Of a DNA stretch of 9,618 nucleotides, positions 1 through 9,618 are shown in pieces; position 1 is the stretch's first letter; every line of letters begins with the position of its first letter. Origin of the DNA: Promethearchaeota archaeon. GTDB lineage: Archaea > Asgardarchaeota > Odinarchaeia > Odinarchaeales > JBHLKK01. The stretch covers positions 1 through 9,618 of the forward strand of contig JBHLPL010000073.1 in the NCBI GenBank assembly GCA_048939465.1, written 5' to 3'. The notes below the pieces were generated by a model. That model saw nothing but the letters and a program-made list of their open reading frames with translations. It was not told the DNA's origin and did not search any database. The translations under genes and the position numbers were made by a program.

Positions 1-2043
1 GGGATAACTAATCTGAGTCAAGTGGCAGCTTTGGATAATGACACTCAAAGCCCGTGGCCAGGAGGAGAGCCTGACTCTGTAGAAAACGGTGGCGGTAATT
101 ACACTGTAGAGCTTTTCACCACCGGTATGACAGGAGGTAACTACACAGTCAAGATCTATTTGCTGAAGCCTGGCTTTGAACCTGGAGTAGTTTATGTCAA
201 TCTAACTCTTACAGGAACCCCTACCCTCATGACCATCCTAAGCGGAGCCGATAACTCATCCGGTTTCTGGGAGACACATAATGATACAAACCCGTATGTT
301 AATGATACCCGAAAGAAGATTGAATTCTCATATAAGAACAATGTGACGGGGGAGGGGCTGGAGCACGGAATTGTTACAGCATCTTTCAAGTATCCTAATG
401 GAACACAGGTACCGGGTAAGGAGAGTCTAGCTTGGCAGGATATGTTTCTGATATCAAATCAAGCACCCGAGTACAAAGGCATCTACAGGGTCCAACTTGA
501 CACCATTGGACTGCATGTAGGGAATTACACTCTGACAATCAGAGTTCAAAGGCAATGGTATCTATCAAGTGAAACTGATATCGTTGTTCATGTGGACCCG
601 ATTCCATCGAGGCTTTTAGTTACCGTGAGAACCGCCGAAGATGGAAACTTAACTGTTTATGAAGATGAATTGTTCGAACTGACGGTAATCTTTTACGATA
701 CATTTCAGGGAAAGAACATTGTTGATGGCAGTGTTAACTGCTCACACGGAGAAGTCAATTATACCTTAGACGAGGAGTCTTTTGGTTCCCTAAAAACGGG
801 AGTTTACAGAAAAGAGATGAATTCAAGTGATCCCGATTTAAACCTGACCAGCGGGAATAACTCAATACTGATTAGGGGTAACGCTACGGATTATGAGAAT
901 GCTAATTATAATCTAGTAATACCTTTCCGTCTCAGATCCGATGCCAGTTTGATTCTCTCTGCGCTTCCTACGGAGATAATGGTTGGCGAGGATTTGATTG
1001 TAGAAGCGACTCTGACATTTGAAGATGGAAGTCTTAATGTTACAGGTAAAAAGATCGAATTCTTGTATTGGTTCGATGGGGAGCAAAAACCAGTAGTTGA
1101 TAGTTACACAAATGCAGATGGAAAAGCCTCTTTGACCATAACAGCACCAGTAGGTGTGACCAGGATTCAGGTAACAGCGATCTATGATGCTGAAGAAGAC
1201 AGATATGCAAATCCGACTTCCAGTGAAGCCTACACCTCATCAGGGAAAGACTATGTTTTGGTTACCACCGTTTTGGGTAAGATACTCGGAATTTCTCCAT
1301 TCCTTGGAGCAGGAGCTTTGGCAGCAGTTGCTGCAGGCTTTTCATACCGGCAATTTGTTATTGTTCCCAAAAGAAAAAGAAGATTGGCCGCCATGGAAAA
1401 GGTCGCTGAGACATTCAGTAATTTAAGAAATATTCAGGACATATTAATTCTTGAGAAACAAAGCGGGCTGGTCCTGTTTGAGCGGCCTTTTAGAGAGAAG
1501 CCTTTCAACCCAGACCTATTTGGCGGCTTCATTCAGGCGATTTCTTCGTTTGGAGGGGAAATCTCCGATGCAGAAGATGTTTCTTTGCAGGAACTGACCT
1601 ACAGAAACTTCAGAATCCTTTTGAACGATGGGGAATATGTGAGAGTCGCGTTGATTCTTTCAGGCAGACCAACGGAGACGCTTTTAGTAAAACTTAAGCT
1701 TTTCACAGCCGCCTTTGAGGAAACATACCGCAAGCAAATCTCAGAATTCAATGGTTCCGTCGAGGCCTTTGATCGCGCATTTGATATCGTGGACGATATC
1801 TTTGAGCTCACGCTCATACTGCCCCACAAAATCCCAATAGAAACAACAATGGCAACAGATCTTACACCCCTTCAGAAGGACTTGGTAAGATTAACAAAAG
1901 AACTACTCAAGGGCAAGGATTACTTCTATCCAAATGAGCTCATATCTTTCGCCATGACGGTGAGAAAAGAAACCATGCTGGAGATAGCTGAGGCAGTGTA
2001 TTATCTGGTTAGAAATAGATACTTTGTTCCAATAATTCTCTGA
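1..2043 (+). CDS. Large single-pass membrane protein (5'-truncated): sequon-rich beta-sandwich repeat ectodomain, TM helix, cytoplasmic longin-like domain, C-terminal winged-helix-like domain
   Basis: The frame is open from base 1 (GITNLSQVAAL...), so the GTG at 22 is probably not the true start. There are 19 N-x-S/T sequons before the TM segment ILGISPFLGAGALAAVAAGFSY (~1282-1347), which is followed by the basic stop-transfer cluster KRKRR (1369-1383). The cytoplasmic part (ILILEKQSGLVLF...LFGGFIQAISSFGGEI...FEETY...FNGSVEAF) resembles Asgard longin-like domains. Confidence 0.85.
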   Translation, partial: GITNLSQVAALDNDTQSPWPGGEPDSVENGGGNYTVELFTTGMTGGNYTVKIYLLKPGFEPGVVYVNLTLTGTPTLMTILSGADNSSGFWETHNDTNPYVNDTRKKIEFSYKNNVTGEGLEHGIVTASFKYPNGTQVPGKESLAWQDMFLISNQAPEYKGIYRVQLDTIGLHVGNYTLTIRVQRQWYLSSETDIVVHVDPIPSRLLVTVRTAEDGNLTVYEDELFELTVIFYDTFQGKNIVDGSVNCSHGEVNYTLDEESFGSLKTGVYRKEMNSSDPDLNLTSGNNSILIRGNATDYENANYNLVIPFRLRSDASLILSALPTEIMVGEDLIVEATLTFEDGSLNVTGKKIEFLYWFDGEQKPVVDSYTNADGKASLTITAPVGVTRIQVTAIYDAEEDRYANPTSSEAYTSSGKDYVLVTTVLGKILGISPFLGAGALAAVAAGFSYRQFVIVPKRKRRLAAMEKVAETFSNLRNIQDILILEKQSGLVLFERPFREKPFNPDLFGGFIQAISSFGGEISDAEDVSLQELTYRNFRILLNDGEYVRVALILSGRPTETLLVKLKLFTAAFEETYRKQISEFNGSVEAFDRAFDIVDDIFELTLILPHKIPIETTMATDLTPLQKDLVRLTKELLKGKDYFYPNELISFAMTVRKETMLEIAEAVYYLVRNRYFVPIIL
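94..897 (+). repeat. Three degenerate protein-level repeats in the ectodomain (Ig-like/beta-sandwich units)
   Basis: GNYTVELFTTGMTGGNYTVKIYLLKPGFE (94-180), GIYRVQLDTIGLHVGNYTLTIRVQRQWY (478-561) and GVYRKEMNSSDPDLNLTSGNNSILIRGNATDYE (799-897) share G-x-Y-x-x-x-h...GN-x-[TS]-h-x-I...[YF]. Confidence 0.65.
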
Positions 2044-2118: not shown

Positions 2119-3111
2119 TCATTTTTCGGAATGGGCAAGATGATTCTTTATTATTTCGAGGGCTTTCGACATGCCCTTCTTCAAATTCTTTGTACCGTTA
2201 CAGCCCGCAGCAGTAGGATGCCCTCCTCCCTCACCACCGATTATCGGACCCACAGGAATCATGACATGCTTTCCAAGATGCAAGCCCGTGCTCTTATACA
2301 CTTTTGTTCTGGACCTTCCACTTATCCGTACTACTTTGTCCTGTTCAGCCCCAACGATGGCTATATCTGCACCGATGTCGATAAGAGCTCTACAAGCGCT
2401 CGCTTCATATGCACTTACTCTAGAGGTTGCAACAATCCAGTCATCAATTCTATGAAGTTTCATCCTTTGGGCAGCTTTGAAACGAGCAGTTCTTTCAGAA
2501 TTATCTAAAGGCGTCTGAAGCATTGAAATAGCTTTAGCATAATTCGCGCCGTGAGCTATTAGCTGAACCACGTTAAGAAACGTATCTTTGCTAGTAATAA
2601 GGAAACGTCGTGAGTCGTAAACCATCGCGGCTAGCAGAGCAAACGCCTCGCTTGAGGTGATTCTTACTCCCGCTTCTCGATATAGACGACAGATTATCTC
2701 CGCAGTTGAATTGCATTTCTCGTCTAATAGCTGAAGAGCGGCTATCTCATGTGCTTGGGGGTGGGGAGTATGGTGATCAATTATTACGATTGGTGCTTCC
2801 AGATTTTCCAGACTTTCTTTCAATGCACCAAGTTGCGCAACATTATTTGTGTCCACCAGAAACACTATGCCAAAGTCTCGTGAAGGAATCTCAGCCTTCA
2901 GATCAATTTTTAGATAATCAGTAAATTTCTTCGAAACCTTATTTTGGCTCTCAGCAACCAGCTCCGTTTTAACCTTTGAAAACTTCTTGCTCAGAAGGTT
3001 CGCAAGTGCAAATGCGCTCAGGACAGCATCGGGATCTGCATTTTGATGACATAAAAGCAACGCGTTTTTTGGCTTTAATTTGTCCAACAGTCTCTTCAGC
3101 TTCTTGAACAC
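2119..3111 (-). CDS. DHH/DHHA1 family phosphoesterase (NrnA-like nanoRNase/pAp phosphatase candidate)
   Basis: Motifs CHQNADPDA (I), LVDTNN (II), IIDHH (III), YDSRRF (IV) and C-terminal GGGHPTAAG (DHHA1). GTG start with GAGGGA 9 nt upstream. Overlaps the upstream gene by 16 nt. Confidence 0.9.
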   Translation of the reverse strand: MFKKLKRLLDKLKPKNALLLCHQNADPDAVLSAFALANLLSKKFSKVKTELVAESQNKVSKKFTDYLKIDLKAEIPSRDFGIVFLVDTNNVAQLGALKESLENLEAPIVIIDHHTPHPQAHEIAALQLLDEKCNSTAEIICRLYREAGVRITSSEAFALLAAMVYDSRRFLITSKDTFLNVVQLIAHGANYAKAISMLQTPLDNSERTARFKAAQRMKLHRIDDWIVATSRVSAYEASACRALIDIGADIAIVGAEQDKVVRISGRSRTKVYKSTGLHLGKHVMIPVGPIIGGEGGGHPTAAGCNGTKNLKKGMSKALEIIKNHLAHSEK

Positions 3112-3407
3112 CGTGTGATTTCCCTCAGTTTTTCTTCTATGGCTCCAAATGCTATATCCACAGCTTCTTGGGCTAGCGAATCACTGTCAAGTCGGCTGAA
3201 AGGAGAGAGTTCAATATTGACCAAGATGTCAATATTCAACTCTTCATCGTATGATGTTTCGATTGTTATGTCGAGTCCTGCTATTTCCCGCTTTGATGTT
3301 CTTTGGTGTATATATTTGCGCGCGGCTGCTTCACTCATCAGACATAGGTGTTCAATCTGTTCGGGAGTCAATTTTGGTAAATTCATTCTTTTGGATTTCA
3401 TTCTCAT
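3096..3407 (-). CDS. DUF3194-like conserved archaeal protein
   Basis: LTPEQIEHLCLMSEAAARKYI...LDITIE...IDILVNIEL...LAQEAVDIAFGAIEEKL pattern, and its usual position right after pfdB. Start moved from the ORF-track position 3467 (inside pfdB) to the ATG at 3407, 4 nt after the pfdB stop; the ATG at 3401 is also possible. Confidence 0.75.
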   Translation of the reverse strand: MRMKSKRMNLPKLTPEQIEHLCLMSEAAARKYIHQRTSKREIAGLDITIETSYDEELNIDILVNIELSPFSRLDSDSLAQEAVDIAFGAIEEKLREITRCSRS

Positions 3408-3411
3408 CTCT

Positions 3412-3777
3412 TCAGGAAGCGCCTGCCCCTCGTCTTTCCAATTTTGCCTGGAGCTTCGTGGTAGCATCCTGAATCTGCTTTCTGAGCTGCTCTTCCTGTC
3501 TCTTTAGGGTCTTCACACGGATTTCCAGAGTCTCTTTCTGATCAGATAGTTCCTTCTTGGTGGGATCTCGATCAACTTTTATCAAAAGAGTTCCTACAGA
3601 CTTATAGACTGTTGTGTCAGCATCTATGTTTTCGAGTTCTGTCAGTGCTCGCTCTGTTTCCCTTAATTGGAGTTCGGATTGATTCCTTTGAGCAGCTATA
3701 AGTTCGTACTGTTGCTGCATTTGTTGAAGACGTAGAATCTCTTGCTGCATTTGAGGTGGTAATTCACCTACGGACAT
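3412..3777 (-). CDS. pfdB: Prefoldin beta subunit
   Basis: ELPPQMQQEILRLQQMQQQ...ELENIDADTTVYKSVGTLLIKVD...LEIRVKTLKRQE: coiled coil, beta-hairpin, coiled coil. SD GAGGT 7 nt before the ATG. Confidence 0.95.
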   Translation of the reverse strand: MSVGELPPQMQQEILRLQQMQQQYELIAAQRNQSELQLRETERALTELENIDADTTVYKSVGTLLIKVDRDPTKKELSDQKETLEIRVKTLKRQEEQLRKQIQDATTKLQAKLERRGAGAS

Positions 3778-3782
3778 TGAAC

Positions 3783-4034
3783 TTACCTCTTTTTCATCAA
3801 ATATAGGTTTTCGATCAGTTTAAACCAACGAAGATATGTATTAACTATAGCCCTCAACGCTGTTACATCTTTGGCTTCAACTCTTAGGTTTAGTGTACGA
3901 CCTCTTTTTATAAGTATTGTTTTTGCTCTGCTGCTCGATGAAGTGGGAAGTTCCGGAAGGACCGCAAGGTAGGCCACCTTAGTGGAATCCTCGTCAGGAA
4001 AAGTAACTTCAATGGCAGCATGTACCTCTGACGT
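3783..4034 (-). CDS. pcc1: KEOPS complex subunit Pcc1 (apparent ACG start)
   Basis: The C-terminal LRVEAKDVTALRAIVNTYLRW is the Pcc1 signature. The frame extends upstream of the ORF-track GTG (3977) as (T)SEVHAAIEVTFPDEDSTKVAYLAVLPE, which matches the Pcc1 N-terminal strand and helix. It is bounded by TAA at 4037-4035, and the first codon is ACG (4034-4032), giving 83 aa. The gene call is strong; the start is inferred. Confidence 0.85.
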   Translation of the reverse strand, partial: TSEVHAAIEVTFPDEDSTKVAYLAVLPELPTSSSSRAKTILIKRGRTLNLRVEAKDVTALRAIVNTYLRWFKLIENLYLMKKR

Positions 4035-4037
4035 TTA

Positions 4038-4604
4038 CTACTCCCCCTCTTTAGTGTCGGCTACCCTCCTAGCGCACAGAACGGGTCCCAGTTCCTGCAG
4101 AGTAGGAATCTCGATAAATTCGAGAATTGCAGGATAGTTGTGAGATTTACTAATAAAAAGCGCAATATTCCCGCTTTCTGAAAGACCAGGTCTTAGTTTA
4201 CCAGGATAAACTGAAGAGTTGAGGTGGTTGGCTAGCTGGTTGGCCAATTTCCCAATTGTGGATGTTGTCTGATGTTCATGGGTTATCACCAATTTTGGTC
4301 TGGCCGGAGCCCGACGCTTCTCAATCTCTCTTCTGAGAACAACCTTACCCAGCAGTAGTTCGGGAGGTACAAAATTGTAACCTTTCGAGGTTACAGACAG
4401 AAAGGACACTTTACTAGGATTACCCCTAAAAGTATCAATGACAATAGCGATCCTGGAATCCAATTCAATCGTTTTTAAGGCGAGCTCGTACATGCTCATC
4501 TTCCCGCGACTGACTCGTATGGCATCTGGAATTACTCGAGCAAGATCATTACATAGAGTCCTTGTGCGTCTCGCTGGACGGTGGGATGTTGTAATCAGAG
4601 GCAC
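4038..4604 (-). CDS. Brix/Imp4-domain ribosome biogenesis protein
   Basis: N-terminal LITTSHRPARRTRTLCNDLARVIP...RGKMS and C-terminal ELGP motif, in the conserved position between rpl37ae and pcc1. GTG start; ends in tandem TAG TAA. Confidence 0.88.
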   Translation of the reverse strand: MPLITTSHRPARRTRTLCNDLARVIPDAIRVSRGKMSMYELALKTIELDSRIAIVIDTFRGNPSKVSFLSVTSKGYNFVPPELLLGKVVLRREIEKRRAPARPKLVITHEHQTTSTIGKLANQLANHLNSSVYPGKLRPGLSESGNIALFISKSHNYPAILEFIEIPTLQELGPVLCARRVADTKEGE

Positions 4605-4623
4605 CGTTTACCCAGACCTGCTA

Positions 4624-4902
4624 TTATTCGGTTTCCGCCTTTTCTTGCATTCTCTTCCCCATACGGGCAGCCATTTTTCCAGCATCAGTTTGGGGTATCC
4701 AGGCCCCTCCTGCGAATGAAAATCCACACTTTTTGCATATCCATATACCTACGCTTGCTCGACGGAGGGCTTTCGTTTTGCATTGAGGACAAGCGTAGGG
4801 AGCCTTAAGCTTTTTCTCGATGGTATGTACTCTCTTCCTTAGGGTCGAGCCGTATCTTACACCAAATCTGGCAGTAGAACCTGTTTTCTTCGTTCGTCCC
4901 AA
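4624..4902 (-). CDS. rpl37ae: 50S ribosomal protein L37ae (eL43)
   Basis: GRTKKTGSTARFGVRYGSTLRKRV and the C4 zinc finger CPQC...WICKKC. The TTG at 4902 is preferred as start because SD GAGGGTG lies 6 nt upstream and homologues begin M-G/A-R-T-K-K. The ATG at 4926 (ATGA overlap with rrp42) is the alternative. Confidence 0.95.
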   Translation of the reverse strand: MGRTKKTGSTARFGVRYGSTLRKRVHTIEKKLKAPYACPQCKTKALRRASVGIWICKKCGFSFAGGAWIPQTDAGKMAARMGKRMQEKAETE

Positions 4903-4922
4903 TATTTTCACCCTCTGAGATC

Positions 4923-5729
4923 TCATCTTTTGGGCAGCTTTTTTGATAGTTCTTTGGCCTTTTTGACCCCAATCTCAATAGCATTTATGGCATCTTCATA
5001 AGGTAAGGCCCCAGTCCCACCTTTTTGGATGGAAGTTACATTCCCATCTTTGTCCACTGAGATCGTGATTCTCCCGTCCATAATGAGTTCCTCCTTCAAG
5101 ATGGGATCTACAGCGAATAAGTTGTTAATTCTAGCCATAGTAATCGATACGACTTCGTTCTCGATCGGAAGAGGTTCTGATTCGTCTAATACTGTTACTT
5201 CGTCTCCATCGACCTTCACTTTTGGAATTCTGGCCGTTAACAGTGCAGACACAGCTGCCAAGGTGGAAGCATCAAATAGATTTCCGTCATAGTCCAAAGC
5301 GTAGACATCGACAAATATAATCCAGACCTTCTCTCCGGGGATTATGCATAGTTTTTCTTTGTTAACAATCTCGGCATGTCTTATCCCTCGATCAACAACG
5401 CGTGCAACTTCGATGGAATTCTCGTCAGGAGGGCCGAATTCAAACATTGGAGAAGCAAGTGGGGTCAATTCTGCATTGACCGTGACGACCCCGCTGTCGG
5501 GCGTGTCGGAATACGGCGATCCAATGTCTACCTTCACTCCCGCAACAACCTGAGTTTTACCCAATGTGACTCTTGCGGAGCCCTCAGCCTTTTCAACAAC
5601 ACCGGTTTCGATAGTGATTTCACGATAATCTTCAATTGAACGTCCATCTATTCTTTTTCCTTTGGCAAGTTCAGAGAGAATTCTTTTCTTCTCGATTTCT
5701 GAGACGATTCTGTACAGATTCTCGCTCAT
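4923..5729 (-). CDS. rrp42: Exosome complex RNase PH-like subunit Rrp42
   Basis: GKRIDGRSIEDYR...GSARVTLGKTQVVAGVK...PYSDTPDSG...ARVVDRGIR...DYDGNLFDA...IQKGG. SD GGAGG; ATGA overlap with rrp41. Confidence 0.96.
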   Translation of the reverse strand: MSENLYRIVSEIEKKRILSELAKGKRIDGRSIEDYREITIETGVVEKAEGSARVTLGKTQVVAGVKVDIGSPYSDTPDSGVVTVNAELTPLASPMFEFGPPDENSIEVARVVDRGIRHAEIVNKEKLCIIPGEKVWIIFVDVYALDYDGNLFDASTLAAVSALLTARIPKVKVDGDEVTVLDESEPLPIENEVVSITMARINNLFAVDPILKEELIMDGRITISVDKDGNVTSIQKGGTGALPYEDAINAIEIGVKKAKELSKKLPKR

Positions 5730-6508
5730 TTCGAATCTCCTCCAGTTTTTCCATTGTCATCTTCTGCAACTCTCTCCCGAATCTGAGTGTATCTTCTCCT
5801 CAGTGCGTCTCTCTGTAATTCATAGATTTCGTTTATACCTTTTGTCGCCATCTTTAGCCCCTCTTTGAGTTCTTCGACTGTTAATTGGCCGTCCATCTGA
5901 AAGAGGGTTATTTCCTTTTTACGAGGCATCATGGCGATAGGTACGTCAGCCTCTCCATATTTGTCTTCAGAGTCGCTCAAGTCAAGTATCATTTGTCCGT
6001 CTGCTTTACCTATAGCAACAGCAGACGTTAGATCTCTTAGAGGAATCCCTGCATCAGCTAGAGCCAAAGATGCACAGTTGATTGATGTGCAGCGTGTTCC
6101 TCCGTCAGCTTCCAAAACCTCGACGAAAACGTCAACAACAGTTCTTGGATATTGCTCTAGGAATGTCGAGGGCAGTAGAGCGTTAGATAGAACCATGGAG
6201 AGTTCAATTTCGCGTCTGCTTGGCGCCGGACTTTTTCTCTCAGAAACGGAGAAGGGCGTCATTCGGTATATACATCTTAAAACTGCCCTATCGGGCAGAG
6301 CAAGGTGTCTGGGGTGGATCTCTCGTGGACCATAAACAGCAACTAATATCTTATTCTTTCCTTGTTCCGTATAGGCAGAGCCATTAGCCTGCCATAAAAT
6401 CCCCACTTCAACCTTTATTGGACGCAGTTCATCTGCCTTCCTTCCATCTATCCTTATACCTTTCTTGTCAACCAGTGTCTCCGGTTGACTATTCCTTTTC
6501 AATGTCAT
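5726..6508 (-). CDS. rrp41: Exosome complex phosphorolytic exoribonuclease Rrp41
   Basis: RIDGRKADELRP, GSAY, VYGPRE, PSRRE, ADGGTR (phosphate-binding) and EDKYGEAD (catalytic Asp region) are all intact. SD GAGGT; ATGA overlap with rrp4. Confidence 0.97.
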   Translation of the reverse strand: MTLKRNSQPETLVDKKGIRIDGRKADELRPIKVEVGILWQANGSAYTEQGKNKILVAVYGPREIHPRHLALPDRAVLRCIYRMTPFSVSERKSPAPSRREIELSMVLSNALLPSTFLEQYPRTVVDVFVEVLEADGGTRCTSINCASLALADAGIPLRDLTSAVAIGKADGQMILDLSDSEDKYGEADVPIAMMPRKKEITLFQMDGQLTVEELKEGLKMATKGINEIYELQRDALRRRYTQIRERVAEDDNGKTGGDSK

Positions 6509-7191
6509 TTTTCGCTACCTCTTTTTCCTTCTATTATTCTCTTTATACGGTCCGTAAGACCGGACGTATGAGATTCTCGTTCAATCAATCGAACGATCTG
6601 AATGAAAAGTTTCGCATCAGCTGGCTTACTACTAGAAAACCATACCAAGCCATTTTGTCCGATTTTTACTCTCTGACCTAGCTGATCTTTTATCATTTTG
6701 ATCATGGAGCCCCGGCGTCCAATCAGACGAGGGACTTTTGGGGGGGACATTTTTATGATTTGGCCACCGTGAAGCTTTCCTAGTCCTTCATTTCTTATTG
6801 TTATTGTGGGGTCACGGCTTCTGTCGAATGAAATTACTTCTCCGACTACGAAGTCACCCACCTTGAATTCCGTTCTGATGGGTTCTCTCATGCTCCTACC
6901 GCGAGGCCGTTCTATCGGAAGTTTTCCGAGATAAGGCGAATTTATGTCAAGCCTTATGCTTACGGGAGAAAGGGAAACAATCTTCCCCAGCACAATATCT
7001 CCCACTTTTGGGTAATAGAAGCCTTCTAGTGGAACTACATATACTGTGTTTCCCCTTATCTCAGCAAGACCAACTGCTGAGGCGAATATCTTCCCATTTT
7101 CTTTGAATGCCCCTTCGCCTGCTCGAAAGCTGTTTTCAGACAGCAGTTCGCCAGGGACAACTATTTGATGTTTCTCAAAATGAACAGACAA
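6505..7191 (-). CDS. rrp4: Exosome RNA-binding cap subunit Rrp4 (S1 + KH)
   Basis: IVVPGELL, YYPKVGDIVLGKI (S1), KVPRLIGRRGSMI (KH GxxG) and HTSGLTDRI. The TTG at 7191 is preferred (GGAGG 7 nt upstream); the ATG at 7209 is the alternative. Confidence 0.95.
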   Translation of the reverse strand: MSVHFEKHQIVVPGELLSENSFRAGEGAFKENGKIFASAVGLAEIRGNTVYVVPLEGFYYPKVGDIVLGKIVSLSPVSIRLDINSPYLGKLPIERPRGRSMREPIRTEFKVGDFVVGEVISFDRSRDPTITIRNEGLGKLHGGQIIKMSPPKVPRLIGRRGSMIKMIKDQLGQRVKIGQNGLVWFSSSKPADAKLFIQIVRLIERESHTSGLTDRIKRIIEGKRGSEK

Positions 7192-7210
7192 TAAAGAGCC
7201 TCCTTTCATA

Positions 7211-7930
7211 CTAGGTTTTGCGTTTTATCTGCGCACTTCCCTTAGTAAGCTTACTTAGAGTATCTACAAAGGTGTTATAGAGACCTGCCGATACTTCGAC
7301 TGTGCCCGTCCATGAGCCATCTCTCATCCATTCTTCTTTGGAGACACTTCCTAATCGGGAAATGGCATTATATGCCTTGCCAGAATGTATGGCAGGAATA
7401 CGAACCTCCAGCTCTATTTGCTCCATCCGTATGGGGAGGATGGGTTGCAAATCCCTAATTATATCTTTGGCTTGTTCCTCTGGATTCCTAAACGGGTCGA
7501 TGGGGACCTTTGCTTCTTCAATTGCTCGCTCTATACGCTGAGGGGGGTGTGGTAATCTTGTCTGGGGGTTTATGCTATTCCGAGCTAGTATTGTTACTAT
7601 CCGCTTCTTTTTAGCTTCGACCATTTTGCTCCTTTGCTCAGAAGTTAGTTGCAGTTCGCCCCTTCGTAGTATCTCCTCAGCCACCTTCAAAAGATCGGAA
7701 GTGCCAAAGACCTCTTCCAGCTTCTCTGGCGAAGCTTTCTTGCCCTTTTTGGCATTCTCAAACACCATGTATCCTTTTAGAATTTCTGGTAGCTCAACCG
7801 ATTTACCGCTTCGAAAATCATATGCCCCCTCGGGTTCGACGAGTATTTCAAATCTTTCACCGTGGAATTCGAAGCGAGCGATTATCGTATTTTCGAATTC
7901 TACCCACTTATCACCCCTTATGCCAGCCAT
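7211..7930 (-). CDS. sdo1: Ribosome maturation factor SBDS/Sdo1
   Basis: ARFEFHGERFEILV...KGKKAS...FGT...GELQLTSEQR...INPQTRLPHPPQRIERAIEEAK...LPIRME...EEWMRDGSW. Confidence 0.96.
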   Translation of the reverse strand: MAGIRGDKWVEFENTIIARFEFHGERFEILVEPEGAYDFRSGKSVELPEILKGYMVFENAKKGKKASPEKLEEVFGTSDLLKVAEEILRRGELQLTSEQRSKMVEAKKKRIVTILARNSINPQTRLPHPPQRIERAIEEAKVPIDPFRNPEEQAKDIIRDLQPILPIRMEQIELEVRIPAIHSGKAYNAISRLGSVSKEEWMRDGSWTGTVEVSAGLYNTFVDTLSKLTKGSAQIKRKT

Positions 7931-7972
7931 AGAAATATCCCCACGTTTAGCTGAGTTCGCTGAGATTCAAAG

Positions 7973-8689
7973 CTAGGCAAGTTTCTCAATGTAGGTCTGC
8001 ACAGTGTCGGCGGAAAGCTTGTCAAACTTCCGTTCATCCGCGCGTACAACAGCAATCTCGACCTTGGTTGAGTCGAGTTTTCCCTCAATTACTTGTTTCA
8101 GTGCGTTTAACGAAAGCATAACACAATCATCGAGCTTTAGAGTATCACTATATTCCTTTTCCAAGAACTCCCTTACTGCCTGTGCACCTGCTCCAATAGC
8201 TTGTGCCTTATAGCTCCAGTAAGCTCCACTTGGATCTGTCATAAAGAGTTTTGATCCGTTATCATCTGCACCGGCAATGAGTAAGCTCACGCCGAAAGGG
8301 CGAACACCTGCATGTTGAGTATACAACTGTTTTAGATCACATACTTTCTTTGTCAGTGTGTCTACGGTAATCGCTTCATCATACGTTAACCTGTTTACCT
8401 GAGCTTCGATTCGTGCCTGGTTTATTAGTACTCTCGCGTCTGCGGTTAGTCCGGCAATTGCAGCGCCTGTGTGTTGATCAACAAAGAATATCTTTTCTAC
8501 GCTTTCCGGCTCTTGCAGCGAAAGGATTTTCTTCTCGACAGCCAATACTACGCCTTCTTCACATCTTATTCCAACAGCGGTGGTACCGCGTCTGACGGCT
8601 TCAAGAGCATATTCTACCTGGAATAATCTTCCGTCCGGACTGAATATAGTGATTGCACGGTCATATCCTAGCCCTGGAGGAGCAAACAT
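7973..8689 (-). CDS. psmA: 20S proteasome alpha subunit
   Basis: GYDRAITIFSPDGRLFQVEYALEAV signature, GLTADARVL, YTQHAGVRPFGVSLLIAG, TDPSG, AIGAG. SD GGAGGTG (8701-8695) 5 nt before the ATG. Confidence 0.98.
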   Translation of the reverse strand: MFAPPGLGYDRAITIFSPDGRLFQVEYALEAVRRGTTAVGIRCEEGVVLAVEKKILSLQEPESVEKIFFVDQHTGAAIAGLTADARVLINQARIEAQVNRLTYDEAITVDTLTKKVCDLKQLYTQHAGVRPFGVSLLIAGADDNGSKLFMTDPSGAYWSYKAQAIGAGAQAVREFLEKEYSDTLKLDDCVMLSLNALKQVIEGKLDSTKVEIAVVRADERKFDKLSADTVQTYIEKLA

Positions 8690-8694
8690 TCTTC

Positions 8695-8733
8695 CACCTC
8701 CTAAATGGGATCATCAATTTGATTCGATTTAGG
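8695..8733 (-). promoter_or_regulatory. psmA leader: SD GGAGGTG plus an upstream hairpin whose 3' arm overlaps it
   Basis: Minus strand CCTAAAT (8733-8727) and ATTTAGG (8706-8700) form a perfect 7-bp inverted repeat; its last two G are the first two of the SD. The SD is clear; a regulatory role for the hairpin is inferred. Confidence 0.45.
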
Positions 8734-8811
8734 CTGCTAGCCATTAAGTATTTCATCCCATTCTTAGAAGTTAAGGATTAAATACTCGCTAAATTGGTTC
8801 ATTGATAATCG

Positions 8812-8830
8812 CCTATAAACGTTTCCTTTT
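8812..8830 (-). promoter_or_regulatory. Candidate BRE/TATA promoter for the psmA operon
   Basis: Minus strand AAAAGGAAAC-G-like purine run followed by TTTATAGG (8819-8812), implying a leader of about 100 nt. Weaker AT-rich candidates lie at ~8787-8775 and ~8757-8743. Confidence 0.4.
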
Positions 8831-8892
8831 TGGTGAACGCGAAGAATCCTAGCGCCGGTTGAATCTTGTCTGAATAGAGCGTATTCATGTTC

Positions 8893-8914
8893 AGAAAACT
8901 CTTAAAGAGAAAAT
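8893..8914 (-). terminator. Candidate oligo-T terminator after the 4-TM protein gene
   Basis: Immediately after the TAA, the minus strand reads ATTTTCTCTTTAAGAGTTTTCT: T-runs flanking a 4-bp CTCT/AGAG stem. Confidence 0.35.
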
Positions 8915-9313
8915 TTAGGATTCTTGAGCAAGGTGCAGATAAAACGTGAATGCTGTGCAACCGGCGAGCGTAACCAGAACGCTTATCAGACCGAACATGA
9001 TGCCCGAAAGCAGCAGAGAGACTATCGCCAACAGAATGATGTCTCCCCACCCTGCTGTAGATACTCTATATTCTCGTACATTCGCTTCAGCCGTAATTGC
9101 AAATAAGAAAAAGAACGCTAGGATCAATCCTTTGACAAGACTATCGAGATAAGGACTTATGCTGCTCAATTCAGTTGTCATATAGCCAAAAACCGATATT
9201 GATGACCAAAGCATTATGGCAAAGGCGAGAGCGGCCCCAGCCAGAACGGCACAGATGACTATTGTTCGAATCATCAGTCTTTCTTCAGTTCGATACCTTT
9301 CTCTTTTGGTCAA
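8915..9313 (-). CDS. Hypothetical small integral membrane protein (about 4 TM helices)
   Basis: Four hydrophobic segments (TIVICAVLAGAALAFAIMLW; LVKGLILAFFFLFAITA; WGDIILLAIVSLLLSGIMF; GLISVLVTLAGCTAFTFYL) and a charged N-terminus. TTG start with GAGGT 8 nt upstream; the ATG at 9274 is the alternative. Confidence 0.8.
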   Translation of the reverse strand: MTKRERYRTEERLMIRTIVICAVLAGAALAFAIMLWSSISVFGYMTTELSSISPYLDSLVKGLILAFFFLFAITAEANVREYRVSTAGWGDIILLAIVSLLLSGIMFGLISVLVTLAGCTAFTFYLHLAQES

Positions 9314-9344
9314 TCCGGTTTACCTCATCTACGCACTTTATGGT

Positions 9345-9364
9345 AAAAACTTTATAAAGCTTTT
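9345..9364. promoter_or_regulatory. Near-palindromic bidirectional BRE/TATA element between divergent genes
   Basis: AAAAACTTTATAAAGCTTTT matches its own reverse complement at 18 of 20 positions. The core TTTATAAA (9351-9358) has an A-rich BRE-like run upstream on both strands and begins 28 nt before the ATG at 9379. Confidence 0.65.
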
Positions 9365-9378
9365 CTGAGAACACAATA

Positions 9379-9618
9379 ATGGGGGTAGGAGTGCCAGCCA
9401 AGGTTGATGTTTTGGAATTGAAAAGAGAGCATATAGGAAAAATCAGGAAGAGGACCTTGGAAAGCCTTCCAATAGAGACTTGCGCAGTCATGATTGGGAG
9501 ATTCAAGGAAGAGATTGGGAGGGTCAAAGAGAAAAGAGCGATTGTCAAGGACGTTGTCTTTCTAAGAAACACTATAAATTCGGCTGTAAGGTTCGCGGTA
9601 GACCCAAACGAGCTTTAC
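9379..9618 (+). CDS. JAMM/MPN+ (Mov34, M67-like) metalloprotease, N-terminal 80 aa, 3'-truncated; absent from the ORF track
   Basis: Translated by hand, open to the window end: MGVGVPAKVDVLELKREHIGKIRKRTLESLPIETCAVMIGRFKEEIGRVKEKRAIVKDVVFLRNTINSAVRFAVDPNELY. This fits the JAMM N-terminal pattern P-x-E-x-C-[GA]-x-h-x-G...V..V...N...S..RF.hDP.E. The HxH...D metal ligands would lie beyond the window. Confidence 0.85.
   Translation, partial: MGVGVPAKVDVLELKREHIGKIRKRTLESLPIETCAVMIGRFKEEIGRVKEKRAIVKDVVFLRNTINSAVRFAVDPNELY

Follow-up and report, generated by a model that had tools for sequence, protein, structure and literature searches.

The gene at nucleotides 1-2043 (plus strand) of contig JBHLPL010000073.1, from the Promethearchaeota archaeon assembly GCA_048939465.1, encodes a type I surface glycoprotein whose cytoplasmic tail consists of a longin and a winged-helix domain. 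Across the Asgard phylum this longin-winged-helix tail recurs as the constant part of a multi-copy family, beneath many different ectodomains. The stretch of DNA that was analysed, hereafter the window, is 9,618 nt long and represents the entire contig C142 of a 1.96-Mb genome bin that is 91% complete. From its N-terminus the protein is built of a signal peptide, an FG-GAP (integrin-alpha-type) beta-propeller, a sequon-rich immunoglobulin (Ig)-like stalk, one transmembrane (TM) helix, a basic cluster, a juxtamembrane helix, the longin domain and the winged helix. Published work already covers longin and roadblock domains and how they have expanded in Asgard archaea, as well as longin-GTPase fusions and signalling fusions of 'NPRL2-like longins'; the domain architecture itself appears to be new. 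The part of the gene that lies in the window carries the following features.

1..1281, plus strand: C-terminal 427 aa of the ectodomain (stalk), a sequon-rich beta-sandwich region with 19 sequons, which lines up with homolog P0003 (1135 aa) at residues 478-861 of the latter
91..663, plus strand: a beta-sandwich unit weakly duplicated within the ectodomain, aa 31-91 versus 159-221, with shared G-x-Y-x-V and GNYT motifs
1000..1188, plus strand: membrane-proximal Ig-like domain (Big_1/Invasin_D3-like), aa 334-396, a weak match to PF09134
1282..1347, plus strand: single TM helix, aa 428-449, rich in small residues with several small-xxx-small spacings, ILGISPFLGAGALAAVAAGFSY
1369..1383, plus strand: KRKRR stop-transfer (positive-inside) cluster, read from the sequence
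1387..1431, plus strand: juxtamembrane alpha-helix before the longin core, tail residues 2-16, with a nearly invariant Asp/Asn13, from the AlphaFold2 model and conservation
1432..1818, plus strand: longin-fold domain, tail residues 17-145, from the AlphaFold2 model, superpositions and hhalign comparison with longin-GTPase paralogs
1819..2040, plus strand: winged-helix subdomain, the last 74 aa, tail residues 146-219, from a separate AlphaFold2 model and VIA superposition

Gene and protein architecture

The open reading frame (ORF) of the target gene comprises 680 aa, terminates at the stop codon 2041-2043 and is truncated at its 5' end for no other reason than that the contig ends there. Its 5' half was found on contig C55 of the same genome, where an ORF of 582 aa begins with a signal-peptide-like segment followed by FG-GAP repeats and runs off the contig end, its last 328 nt being 90% identical to window positions 1-328. 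Both pieces are collinear with full-length homologs of 1135-1143 aa. Among public metagenome contigs aligned to window positions 1-1500, one of 7219 nt spans positions 4-1500 unbroken and extends 4345 nt upstream; it differs from the window only at positions 54-297, its sequence before position 4 is that of C55, and 30 of its 31 variant letters are the C55 letters. This bridging contig and its C55-type letters therefore establish that C55 and window 1-2043 belong to a single gene, encoding a protein of ~1153 aa whose N-terminal 473 aa lie on C55. An unbroken 1163-aa gene from the same genus, considered as proof of the join, was rejected as it is the ortholog of another protein of the genome, the paralog on contig C39. 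Among named relatives, the one nearest to the target protein (82% tail identity) is annotated as 'Candidatus Hodarchaeota archaeon', and its locus is gene-for-gene syntenic with the window, which places the source organism within or close to this Asgard group.

In the first ~300 nt of the window, 32 positions differ from C55 (L012:2-329, minus strand) and from all aligned public contigs, and from about nt 315 onward the public contigs are identical to the window. Nucleotides 1-300 are thus a strain-level variant inside the ectodomain, the point at which the assembly broke. The contig of the Hodarchaeota ortholog is broken in the same ectodomain region.

The initial annotation of this DNA, made from the sequence alone, had proposed a type I topology with one TM helix at about 1282-1347 followed by KRKRR, and had suggested a search for a signal peptide upstream of the window; the latter is present on the C55 piece, and the topology was borne out. 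The segment at 1282-1347 is the single hydrophobic one, with a 19-aa Kyte-Doolittle mean of 1.8, no other segment of the ORF exceeding 1.6, and the KRKRR cluster follows at 1369-1383. Residues of the Gly/Ala/Ser class make up 55% of the helix against a family mean of 25%. As many as 19 N-X-S/T sequons were counted in the 427-aa ectodomain, where 5.0±2.0 were expected (maximum 13 in 2000 shuffles), and the tail has one. With sequons outside and a positive-inside cluster after the helix, the orientation is therefore N-out and C-in. This helix with its small-xxx-small spacings, followed by G-F-S-Y-R-Q-F and then KRKRR, recalls dimerising TM helices and the G-F-F-K-R region of integrin alpha, probably by coincidence.

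The 'sequon-rich repeat ectodomain' of the initial annotation stands firmly for the sequons and weakly for the repeats, which amount to one duplication and one sub-threshold Ig-like match. The best off-diagonal local alignment of the duplicated units scores 53 against 35.6±4.9 in shuffles (maximum 47; z about 3.5). The Ig-like domain matches PF09134 (Invasin_D3) with E 5.7e-5 and 24 bits, under the cutoff of 33, and the C39 paralog matches Big_1 (E 2.8e-6) at the same position. On the C55 piece, FG-GAP_3 is matched in 3 stretches (E 1.6e-13) and FG-GAP at E 3.5e-4, along with three D-x-D-x-D-G calcium-type loops; an FG-GAP repeat region at the N-terminus of a type I protein is also found in the C39 paralog and in homolog P0003. 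The N-terminal FG-GAP propeller, Ig-like legs, small-residue-rich TM helix and basic juxtamembrane stretch are shared with integrin alpha, whose tails are, unlike the two folded domains of the target, short peptides. As FG-GAP propellers are widespread in prokaryotes (PMC3192720), this likeness is a resemblance and not membership of the integrin alpha family. Meheust et al. (PMC9258230) describe an Asgard family as 'integrin-like'; it was also considered and is a different one, integrin beta4-like and located beside tubulin/FtsZ.

The longin-winged-helix tail and its family

The tail comprises the 219 aa between KRKRR and the stop codon, close to the ~215 aa given in the initial annotation, which had recognised the longin pattern and missed both the juxtamembrane helix and the winged helix at nt 1819-2040. 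Its AlphaFold2 model, built on a 72-sequence alignment (A1), reached a predicted local distance difference test score (pLDDT) of 90.3 and a predicted TM-score (pTM) of 0.83. In the model, five strands (tail residues 17-24, 30-35, 70-73, 76-82, 86-92) and three helices (43-60, 98-120, 132-145) give the element order beta-beta-alpha-beta-beta-beta-alpha-alpha over nt 1432-1818, with packing judged through superpositions only. The initial annotation had read the same order at about 1420-1806, and the three peptides it quoted correspond to alpha1, to alpha2 and to where alpha3 begins. Within the core, conservation is highest in the motif D-P-x-L-I-S-G-F-L-x-A-I-x-S-F of alpha1, and G28, G83, R87 and E112 are nearly invariant.

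Foldseek comparison of the model with the Protein Data Bank (PDB) placed zeta-COP (E 2.7e-5) and AP2 sigma (5e-5) at the top, together with AP-1/3 sigma, Fuzzy, TRAPP subunits, Mon1-Ccz1 and Sec22b, and just under these longins came MglB, LAMTOR, Rag C-terminal domains and Asgard Roadblock3. VIA, an aligner independent of Foldseek, superposed the tail on TRAPPC4 (2j3t_D, Z 13.3, root-mean-square deviation (rmsd) 2.5, 122 aa), Fuzzy (9rs8_A, Z 12.8), Sec22b (1ifq_B, Z 12.6), VAMP7 (Z 12.0) and the Lokiarchaeal longin crystal structure 8yqg_B (Z 11.6 over 131 residues). These longin alignments span tail residues 15-145 with alpha3 included, over 118-131 residues at Z 10-13.3. The GAF/PAS or enzyme fold that the initial annotation had named as the alternative was ruled out, as both fold searches returned longins. 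Thus, at the level of the predicted fold, nt 1432-1818 encode a longin domain.

Direct sequence searches with the tail were silent on this point. The tail has no Pfam match at E<=1 and reaches the gathering cutoff of no Pfam longin family, the NCBIfam scan was likewise empty, and Pfam on the 72 aligned relatives gave scattered chance matches only, with no longin family at E<=0.1. Nothing significant came from profile searches run with the whole module against PDB sequences, and a language-model feature search gave best scores of 0.78-0.79, under the meaningful level.

A Roadblock/LC7 (MglB-like) domain in place of the longin is nearly tied by Z alone. Its superpositions come within 1-2 units of the longins and at lower rmsd (Asgard Roadblock3 9jue, Z 11.9, rmsd 2.2; MglB, 11.3), and the tail has a helix N-terminal to beta1 (residues 2-16), only the last turn of which falls inside the alignments. 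However, the roadblock alignments (Z 9.7-11.9) cover 98-107 aa and end at residue 113-121, whereas the longins continue for 118-131 residues through alpha3 to 145; the element order after beta1 is that of longins, and paralogs in the genome match Fuz_longin_1 and Clat_adaptor_s and not Robl_LC7. The longin is therefore preferred on the alpha3 coverage, the element order and the Pfam matches of the paralogs, and a roadblock identity appears highly improbable.

The winged helix, folded alone, was modelled with a pLDDT of 92.7 as three helices with short strands. Its best VIA superposition is on the peptide-binding, RRE-type winged helix of TbtB (Z 9.8, rmsd 1.7, 74 aa), followed by MecI, ORC/Cdc6, MCM, Rio2 and the cullin WHB domain at Z 6-7.5; Foldseek with the isolated domain gave no match at E<=1e-3, and a PDB sequence profile search with it found nothing significant. 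These data bear on whether the protein could be a membrane-tethered transcription regulator, with the winged helix binding DNA at the membrane in the manner of ToxR/CadC or after proteolytic release, and with the longin as sensor or dimerisation unit. Matches to DNA-binding domains of MecI, Zur, LexA and AsnC type (Z 6-7.5) would fit such a role, as would the HTH_47 or TrmB annotation carried by 11-52% of the members in some related soluble ESM Atlas clusters. On the other hand, the domain is near-neutral (isoelectric point 8.2, net charge +1; family mean +1.5±2.9, down to -6), and its conserved positions are hydrophobic or Pro, with one Lys and one Arg as the only basic residues of the consensus and no basic recognition helix. 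The best match being a peptide-binding domain, Foldseek having returned no significant match and no protease site or partner being evident also speak against this regulator, which we consider very unlikely. The most probable binding partner of the winged helix is a protein or peptide and not DNA.

A HMMER search with the tail retrieved 1030 cluster representatives at E<=1e-3, most of which are proteins of 1000-3000 aa that carry the complete 219-aa module at their C-terminal end or close to it. The module is present in 140 of the 151 genomes of the phylum that were searched and in all 72 of high quality, often in at least 19 copies, and the ESM Atlas clusters matching the whole module (TM-score 0.9) are all from Asgard archaea. 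Among the 150 best representatives, 142 had enough upstream sequence to be assessed, and a TM-like segment lies within 50 aa upstream of the module in 130 of these, all except one of which carry at least 3 K/R within 20 aa after it; the median spacing between the TM segment and the module is about 18 aa. Identity to the target was 82% in the tail and 64% in the ectodomain for the nearest ortholog, and 49/44, 46/40 and 42/39% for more distant homologs, and at 35-38% tail identity the ectodomains could not be aligned. Tail conservation exceeds that of the ectodomain at every distance; the constant unit is therefore made up of the TM helix, basic cluster, longin and winged helix, and the ectodomain is exchangeable.

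The genome itself holds about ten copies of the longin module. One of these, on C39, is a full paralog of the target with the same architecture, and others include a 748-aa multi-TM protein, a fusion to a KaiC ATPase and two or three soluble longin-winged-helix proteins, among them those at C20:5231-5935 and on C78. Two paralogs consist of a longin fused directly to a GTPase of Arf/Roc/Ras type, one of 285 aa (C138:81464-82318, L009:1486-2340) and one of 325 aa (C31, L010:889-1863, minus strand). The former matches Fuz_longin_1 (PF19036) with 27.2 bits, above the cutoff of 26.1, and then Arf (E 8.5e-18), Roc and Ras. In hhalign, the A1 profile aligned with the longins of the two fusions over the whole core at 97.8% (E 1.1e-12) and 98.5% (E 3e-15), and these longins keep the conserved Gly before beta2 and do not have Arg87. 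The N-terminus of a further paralog of 703 aa (C105:1557-4989, L030) passes Clat_adaptor_s (PF01217) with 22.7 bits against a cutoff of 22.5.

Regarding the gene contexts of these paralogs, the polytopic 748-aa protein (C20:17000-19246, minus strand; L028:5003-7246) carries a winged-helix-like stretch and a C-terminal longin module, and the module is therefore not restricted to type I glycoproteins and occurs on multi-pass proteins as well. The 703-aa gene on C105 lies directly downstream of an IS605 OrfB/TnpB (Cas12f-like) transposase gene. Two soluble longin-winged-helix genes (C20:5231-7040, L013; C10:20921-23448, L015), one of them a KaiC-type ATPase fusion, are each followed by a gene for a class I S-adenosylmethionine methyltransferase, within about 20 nt or overlapping. 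With 30% identity over 305 aa (E 6e-44), these methyltransferases are paralogs of each other, and the arrangement looks like a duplicated gene pair.

Predicted self-association and a possible GTPase platform

When two copies of the tail were modelled together, the interface score was 0.49 as against 0.00 for the best of 3 controls, the runs shared at least 90% of contacts and the pLDDT of the partner was at least 82. The interface, to which F49, F56 and Y73 belong, is symmetric and formed by alpha1-alpha1 and the beta3-beta3 edge strands, and two tails are thus predicted to pair in the manner of a canonical longin/roadblock dimer. Conservation at the helix and strand positions of the interface (0.71) is higher than in the remainder of the longin domain (about 0.54; permutation p 0.0005).

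Dimers of longin and roadblock domains are known as platforms for GTPases (PMC3747258, PMC10933270). On the grounds of these published platforms, the GTPase-fused paralogs and the 18 Arf-model matches (small GTPases) in the genome, we tentatively propose, at slightly less than even confidence, that a membrane-held longin dimer acts as a docking or regulatory platform for a small GTPase. The fusion of two domains in a paralog is classic evidence of the two domain types working together. In the proposed scheme the dimer would recruit or regulate one of the roughly 18 Arf/Rag/Ras-like GTPases of the organism, as platforms do in TRAPP, Mon1-Ccz1, Ragulator-Rag, SR-alpha/beta and MglB. Contact with the GTPase might be direct, or it might go through pairing with the homologous longin of a longin-GTPase fusion, as Rag roadblock domains do on Ragulator. 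Asgard GTPases mostly carry no lipid anchors, and the platform would supply them with a membrane address; clustering of ectodomains, driven by ligand or contact, would control where the platform forms.

A broader version would see the TM-longin-winged-helix proteins as phylum-wide transmembrane receptors, in which contact or ligand binding by the variable ectodomain assembles a longin dimer that recruits or switches Arf/Rag-like GTPases. This we hold to be doubtful. The initial annotation had suggested that the protein could couple an extracellular cue or adhesion event to small GTPases or membrane remodelling; the structural part of its interpretation has held, whereas the functional coupling is plausible, its links to GTPases being indirect, through fusion paralogs and a predicted dimer interface.

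Several observations weigh against such a role. Of 30 proteins whose solved structures are pairs of one chain, 20 reach the mark for a dimer, as does 1 of 23 with single-chain structures; this calibration applies only roughly here, as a custom alignment was used. Many longin/roadblock dimers have been solved, and the co-modelling result may stem from the model having learnt them, and hence show likeness instead of binding. When the variable loop 61-69 is included, the conservation of the interface is no longer significant (p 0.13), and alpha1 being a core element, its conservation can be explained by folding alone. Not all longin domains work with GTPases; those of SNAREs and of AP sigma/mu, in the latter as structural cores, have other roles. 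Genes for GTPases, longins, roadblocks, ESCRT or other trafficking proteins, of which the initial annotation had suggested seeking GTPase and ESCRT genes nearby, adjoin neither the target nor its syntenic Hodarchaeota ortholog nor the inspected paralogs. Five f17 genomes (75-83% complete) that do not have the module still give 8-17 Arf-model matches each, so the GTPases do not depend on the module; the Arf model also fires in ordinary prokaryotes. None of the public sequencing runs listed as containing the gene, which come from mangrove and sediment sites, is of RNA. As to gene neighbourhood, Asgard GTPase and longin genes are rarely found in operons in published work, and the contig of homolog P0003 is short, with uninformative neighbours.

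The absence of a GTPase gene beside the target or its ortholog would suit a structural surface protein or adhesin, in which the longin-winged-helix tail only anchors the protein to a cytoplasmic scaffold (cytoskeleton, a soluble longin-winged-helix adaptor, or export and sorting machinery) and no GTPase is switched. The large, sequon-heavy ectodomain of adhesin-type modules (FG-GAP, Ig-like), freely swapped over a constant tail, points in that direction, as do the soluble longin-winged-helix paralogs of the same genome, which might act as adaptors, and the fact that the best structural matches include longins without a regulatory role (AP sigma, zeta-COP, Sec22). Nevertheless, among relatives by sequence whose second domain is known, the GTPase fusions are the closest, and the near-invariant polar positions G28, R87 and E112 point to a role beyond that of a passive anchor. 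We therefore rate a purely anchoring tail as somewhat unlikely.

The same conserved residues raise a further alternative, a GTPase-activating protein (GAP)-type tail of the folliculin/SMCR8/NPRL2 class with Arg87 as an arginine finger near the Gly28 loop. Of 153 members, 149 have G28 at the end of the beta1-beta2 loop and 142 have R87 at the top of beta5, which the topology places beside that loop; the GTPase-fused paralogs have the Gly and do not have the Arg. A 'GP' motif before beta2 together with an arginine finger is described in FLCN/SMCR8/NPRL2 and some Asgard longins (PMC12290439), and Liu et al. (10.1101/2020.10.19.343400) report abundant 'NPRL2-like' longins in Asgard archaea. Like folliculin, SMCR8/C9orf72 and NPRL2/NPRL3, the target has a longin followed by small domains, with a conserved Gly before beta2 and an Arg near it. 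Unlike these, it does not have the Pro of the GP motif (the target reads S-G-L, and T, V, L, I, A or S are the common residues at position 29), the NPR2 or Folliculin Pfam signal, or a DENN or NPRL2 C-terminal domain. Pfam NPR2 (PF06218) and Folliculin (PF11704) find nothing anywhere in the genome at E<=10, FLCN, NPRL2 and SMCR8 are not in the top 50 structural matches, and R87 may merely form a salt bridge with the invariant E112. A GAP-type tail is thus quite unlikely.

The docking platform can be compared with known systems at several points. TRAPPC1/C4 (Bet5/Trs23), the first longin of Fuzzy/Mon1/HPS1 and the SRX domain of SR-alpha share the fold (Z 10-13.3 over 118-127 residues); the eukaryotic platforms use the same alpha1/beta3 dimer mode as is predicted here, and a paralog in the genome passes the Fuz_longin_1 cutoff. 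In contrast to the target, these platforms are soluble or peripheral subunits of multi-protein guanine nucleotide exchange factors or receptors, none of them being the tail of a type I glycoprotein, and the target tail, unlike theirs, matches no Pfam longin family. With Ragulator-Rag the proposed platform shares its logic, in which GTPases bearing a homologous domain land on a roadblock/longin-superfamily dimer that is anchored in the membrane, and LAMTOR and the Rag C-terminal domains superpose on the tail at Z 10-11. The Ragulator anchor is a lipidated scaffold (LAMTOR1) with the roadblock variant, whereas here a TM helix and an extracellular domain are combined with the longin variant.

Within the phylum, the Asgard longin-GTPase fusions and 'NPRL2-like longin' families belong to the same domain superfamily, and the target tail shows profile homology to the two fusions of this genome. 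In the accessible portions of the sources, Asgard longins are described as soluble or as fused to GTPase, two-component, Vps28, adaptin or TRAPPC3 domains (10.1101/2020.10.19.343400; Tran et al., PMC10933270); as far as these portions go, the target differs in its signal peptide, giant ectodomain and TM helix upstream of the longin. The word 'transmembrane' is absent from PMC10933270 and PMC12290439. In a literature search of a limited library, no account came up of a longin-winged-helix tail preceded by a signal peptide, a giant ectodomain and a TM helix. The initial annotation's remark that no characterised example was known accordingly holds for the layout, and has to be set beside the abundant Asgard 'NPRL2-like' longins with fusions reported in 10.1101/2020.10.19.343400.

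Asgard archaea encode dozens of eukaryote-like small GTPases along with longin and roadblock proteins. A longin-winged-helix module held ~18 residues below the membrane provides a concrete, testable physical link from the cell surface to the GTPase machinery. If the receptor interpretation were true, the family would represent a prokaryotic forerunner of the Ragulator-Rag, SR-alpha/beta and TRAPP platforms and of outside-in adhesion signalling, and would explain how Asgard GTPases devoid of lipid anchors reach membranes; such a link would bear on how receptor-to-GTPase signalling and membrane-trafficking platforms of eukaryotes originated. If the link fails, the family is still a main class of Asgard surface proteins that deserves a name. 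The tail is small, confidently modelled and probably simple to express, and the candidate partners are finite, namely about 18 GTPases and 9 longin paralogs in a 2-Mb genome.

Genomic surroundings and minor observations

The remainder of the window (2119-9618, minus strand) encodes a DHH/DHHA1 phosphoesterase and then the archaeal exosome-proteasome superoperon, which comprises a DUF3194-like gene, prefoldin beta, Pcc1, a 188-aa Brix-like ORF, L37ae, Rrp42, Rrp41, Rrp4, SBDS and PsmA (proteasome alpha). The superoperon is followed by a gene for a membrane protein of 132 aa and by the beginning of a Prok-JAB gene. This arrangement is ordinary and fully syntenic with NCBI GCA_048886265.1.

Elsewhere in the genome, C78:8628-12074 (L029) encodes a class II-type ribonucleotide reductase large subunit that is split by an intein with a LAGLIDADG homing-endonuclease domain. 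In the ESM Atlas, bacterial OmpA-family proteins of 760-800 aa, from a cluster whose 6862 members are mostly from Pseudomonadota, matched ~150 residues of the module at a TM-score of 0.58, and a longin/roadblock-like domain may thus occur in OmpA-family envelope proteins of bacteria.

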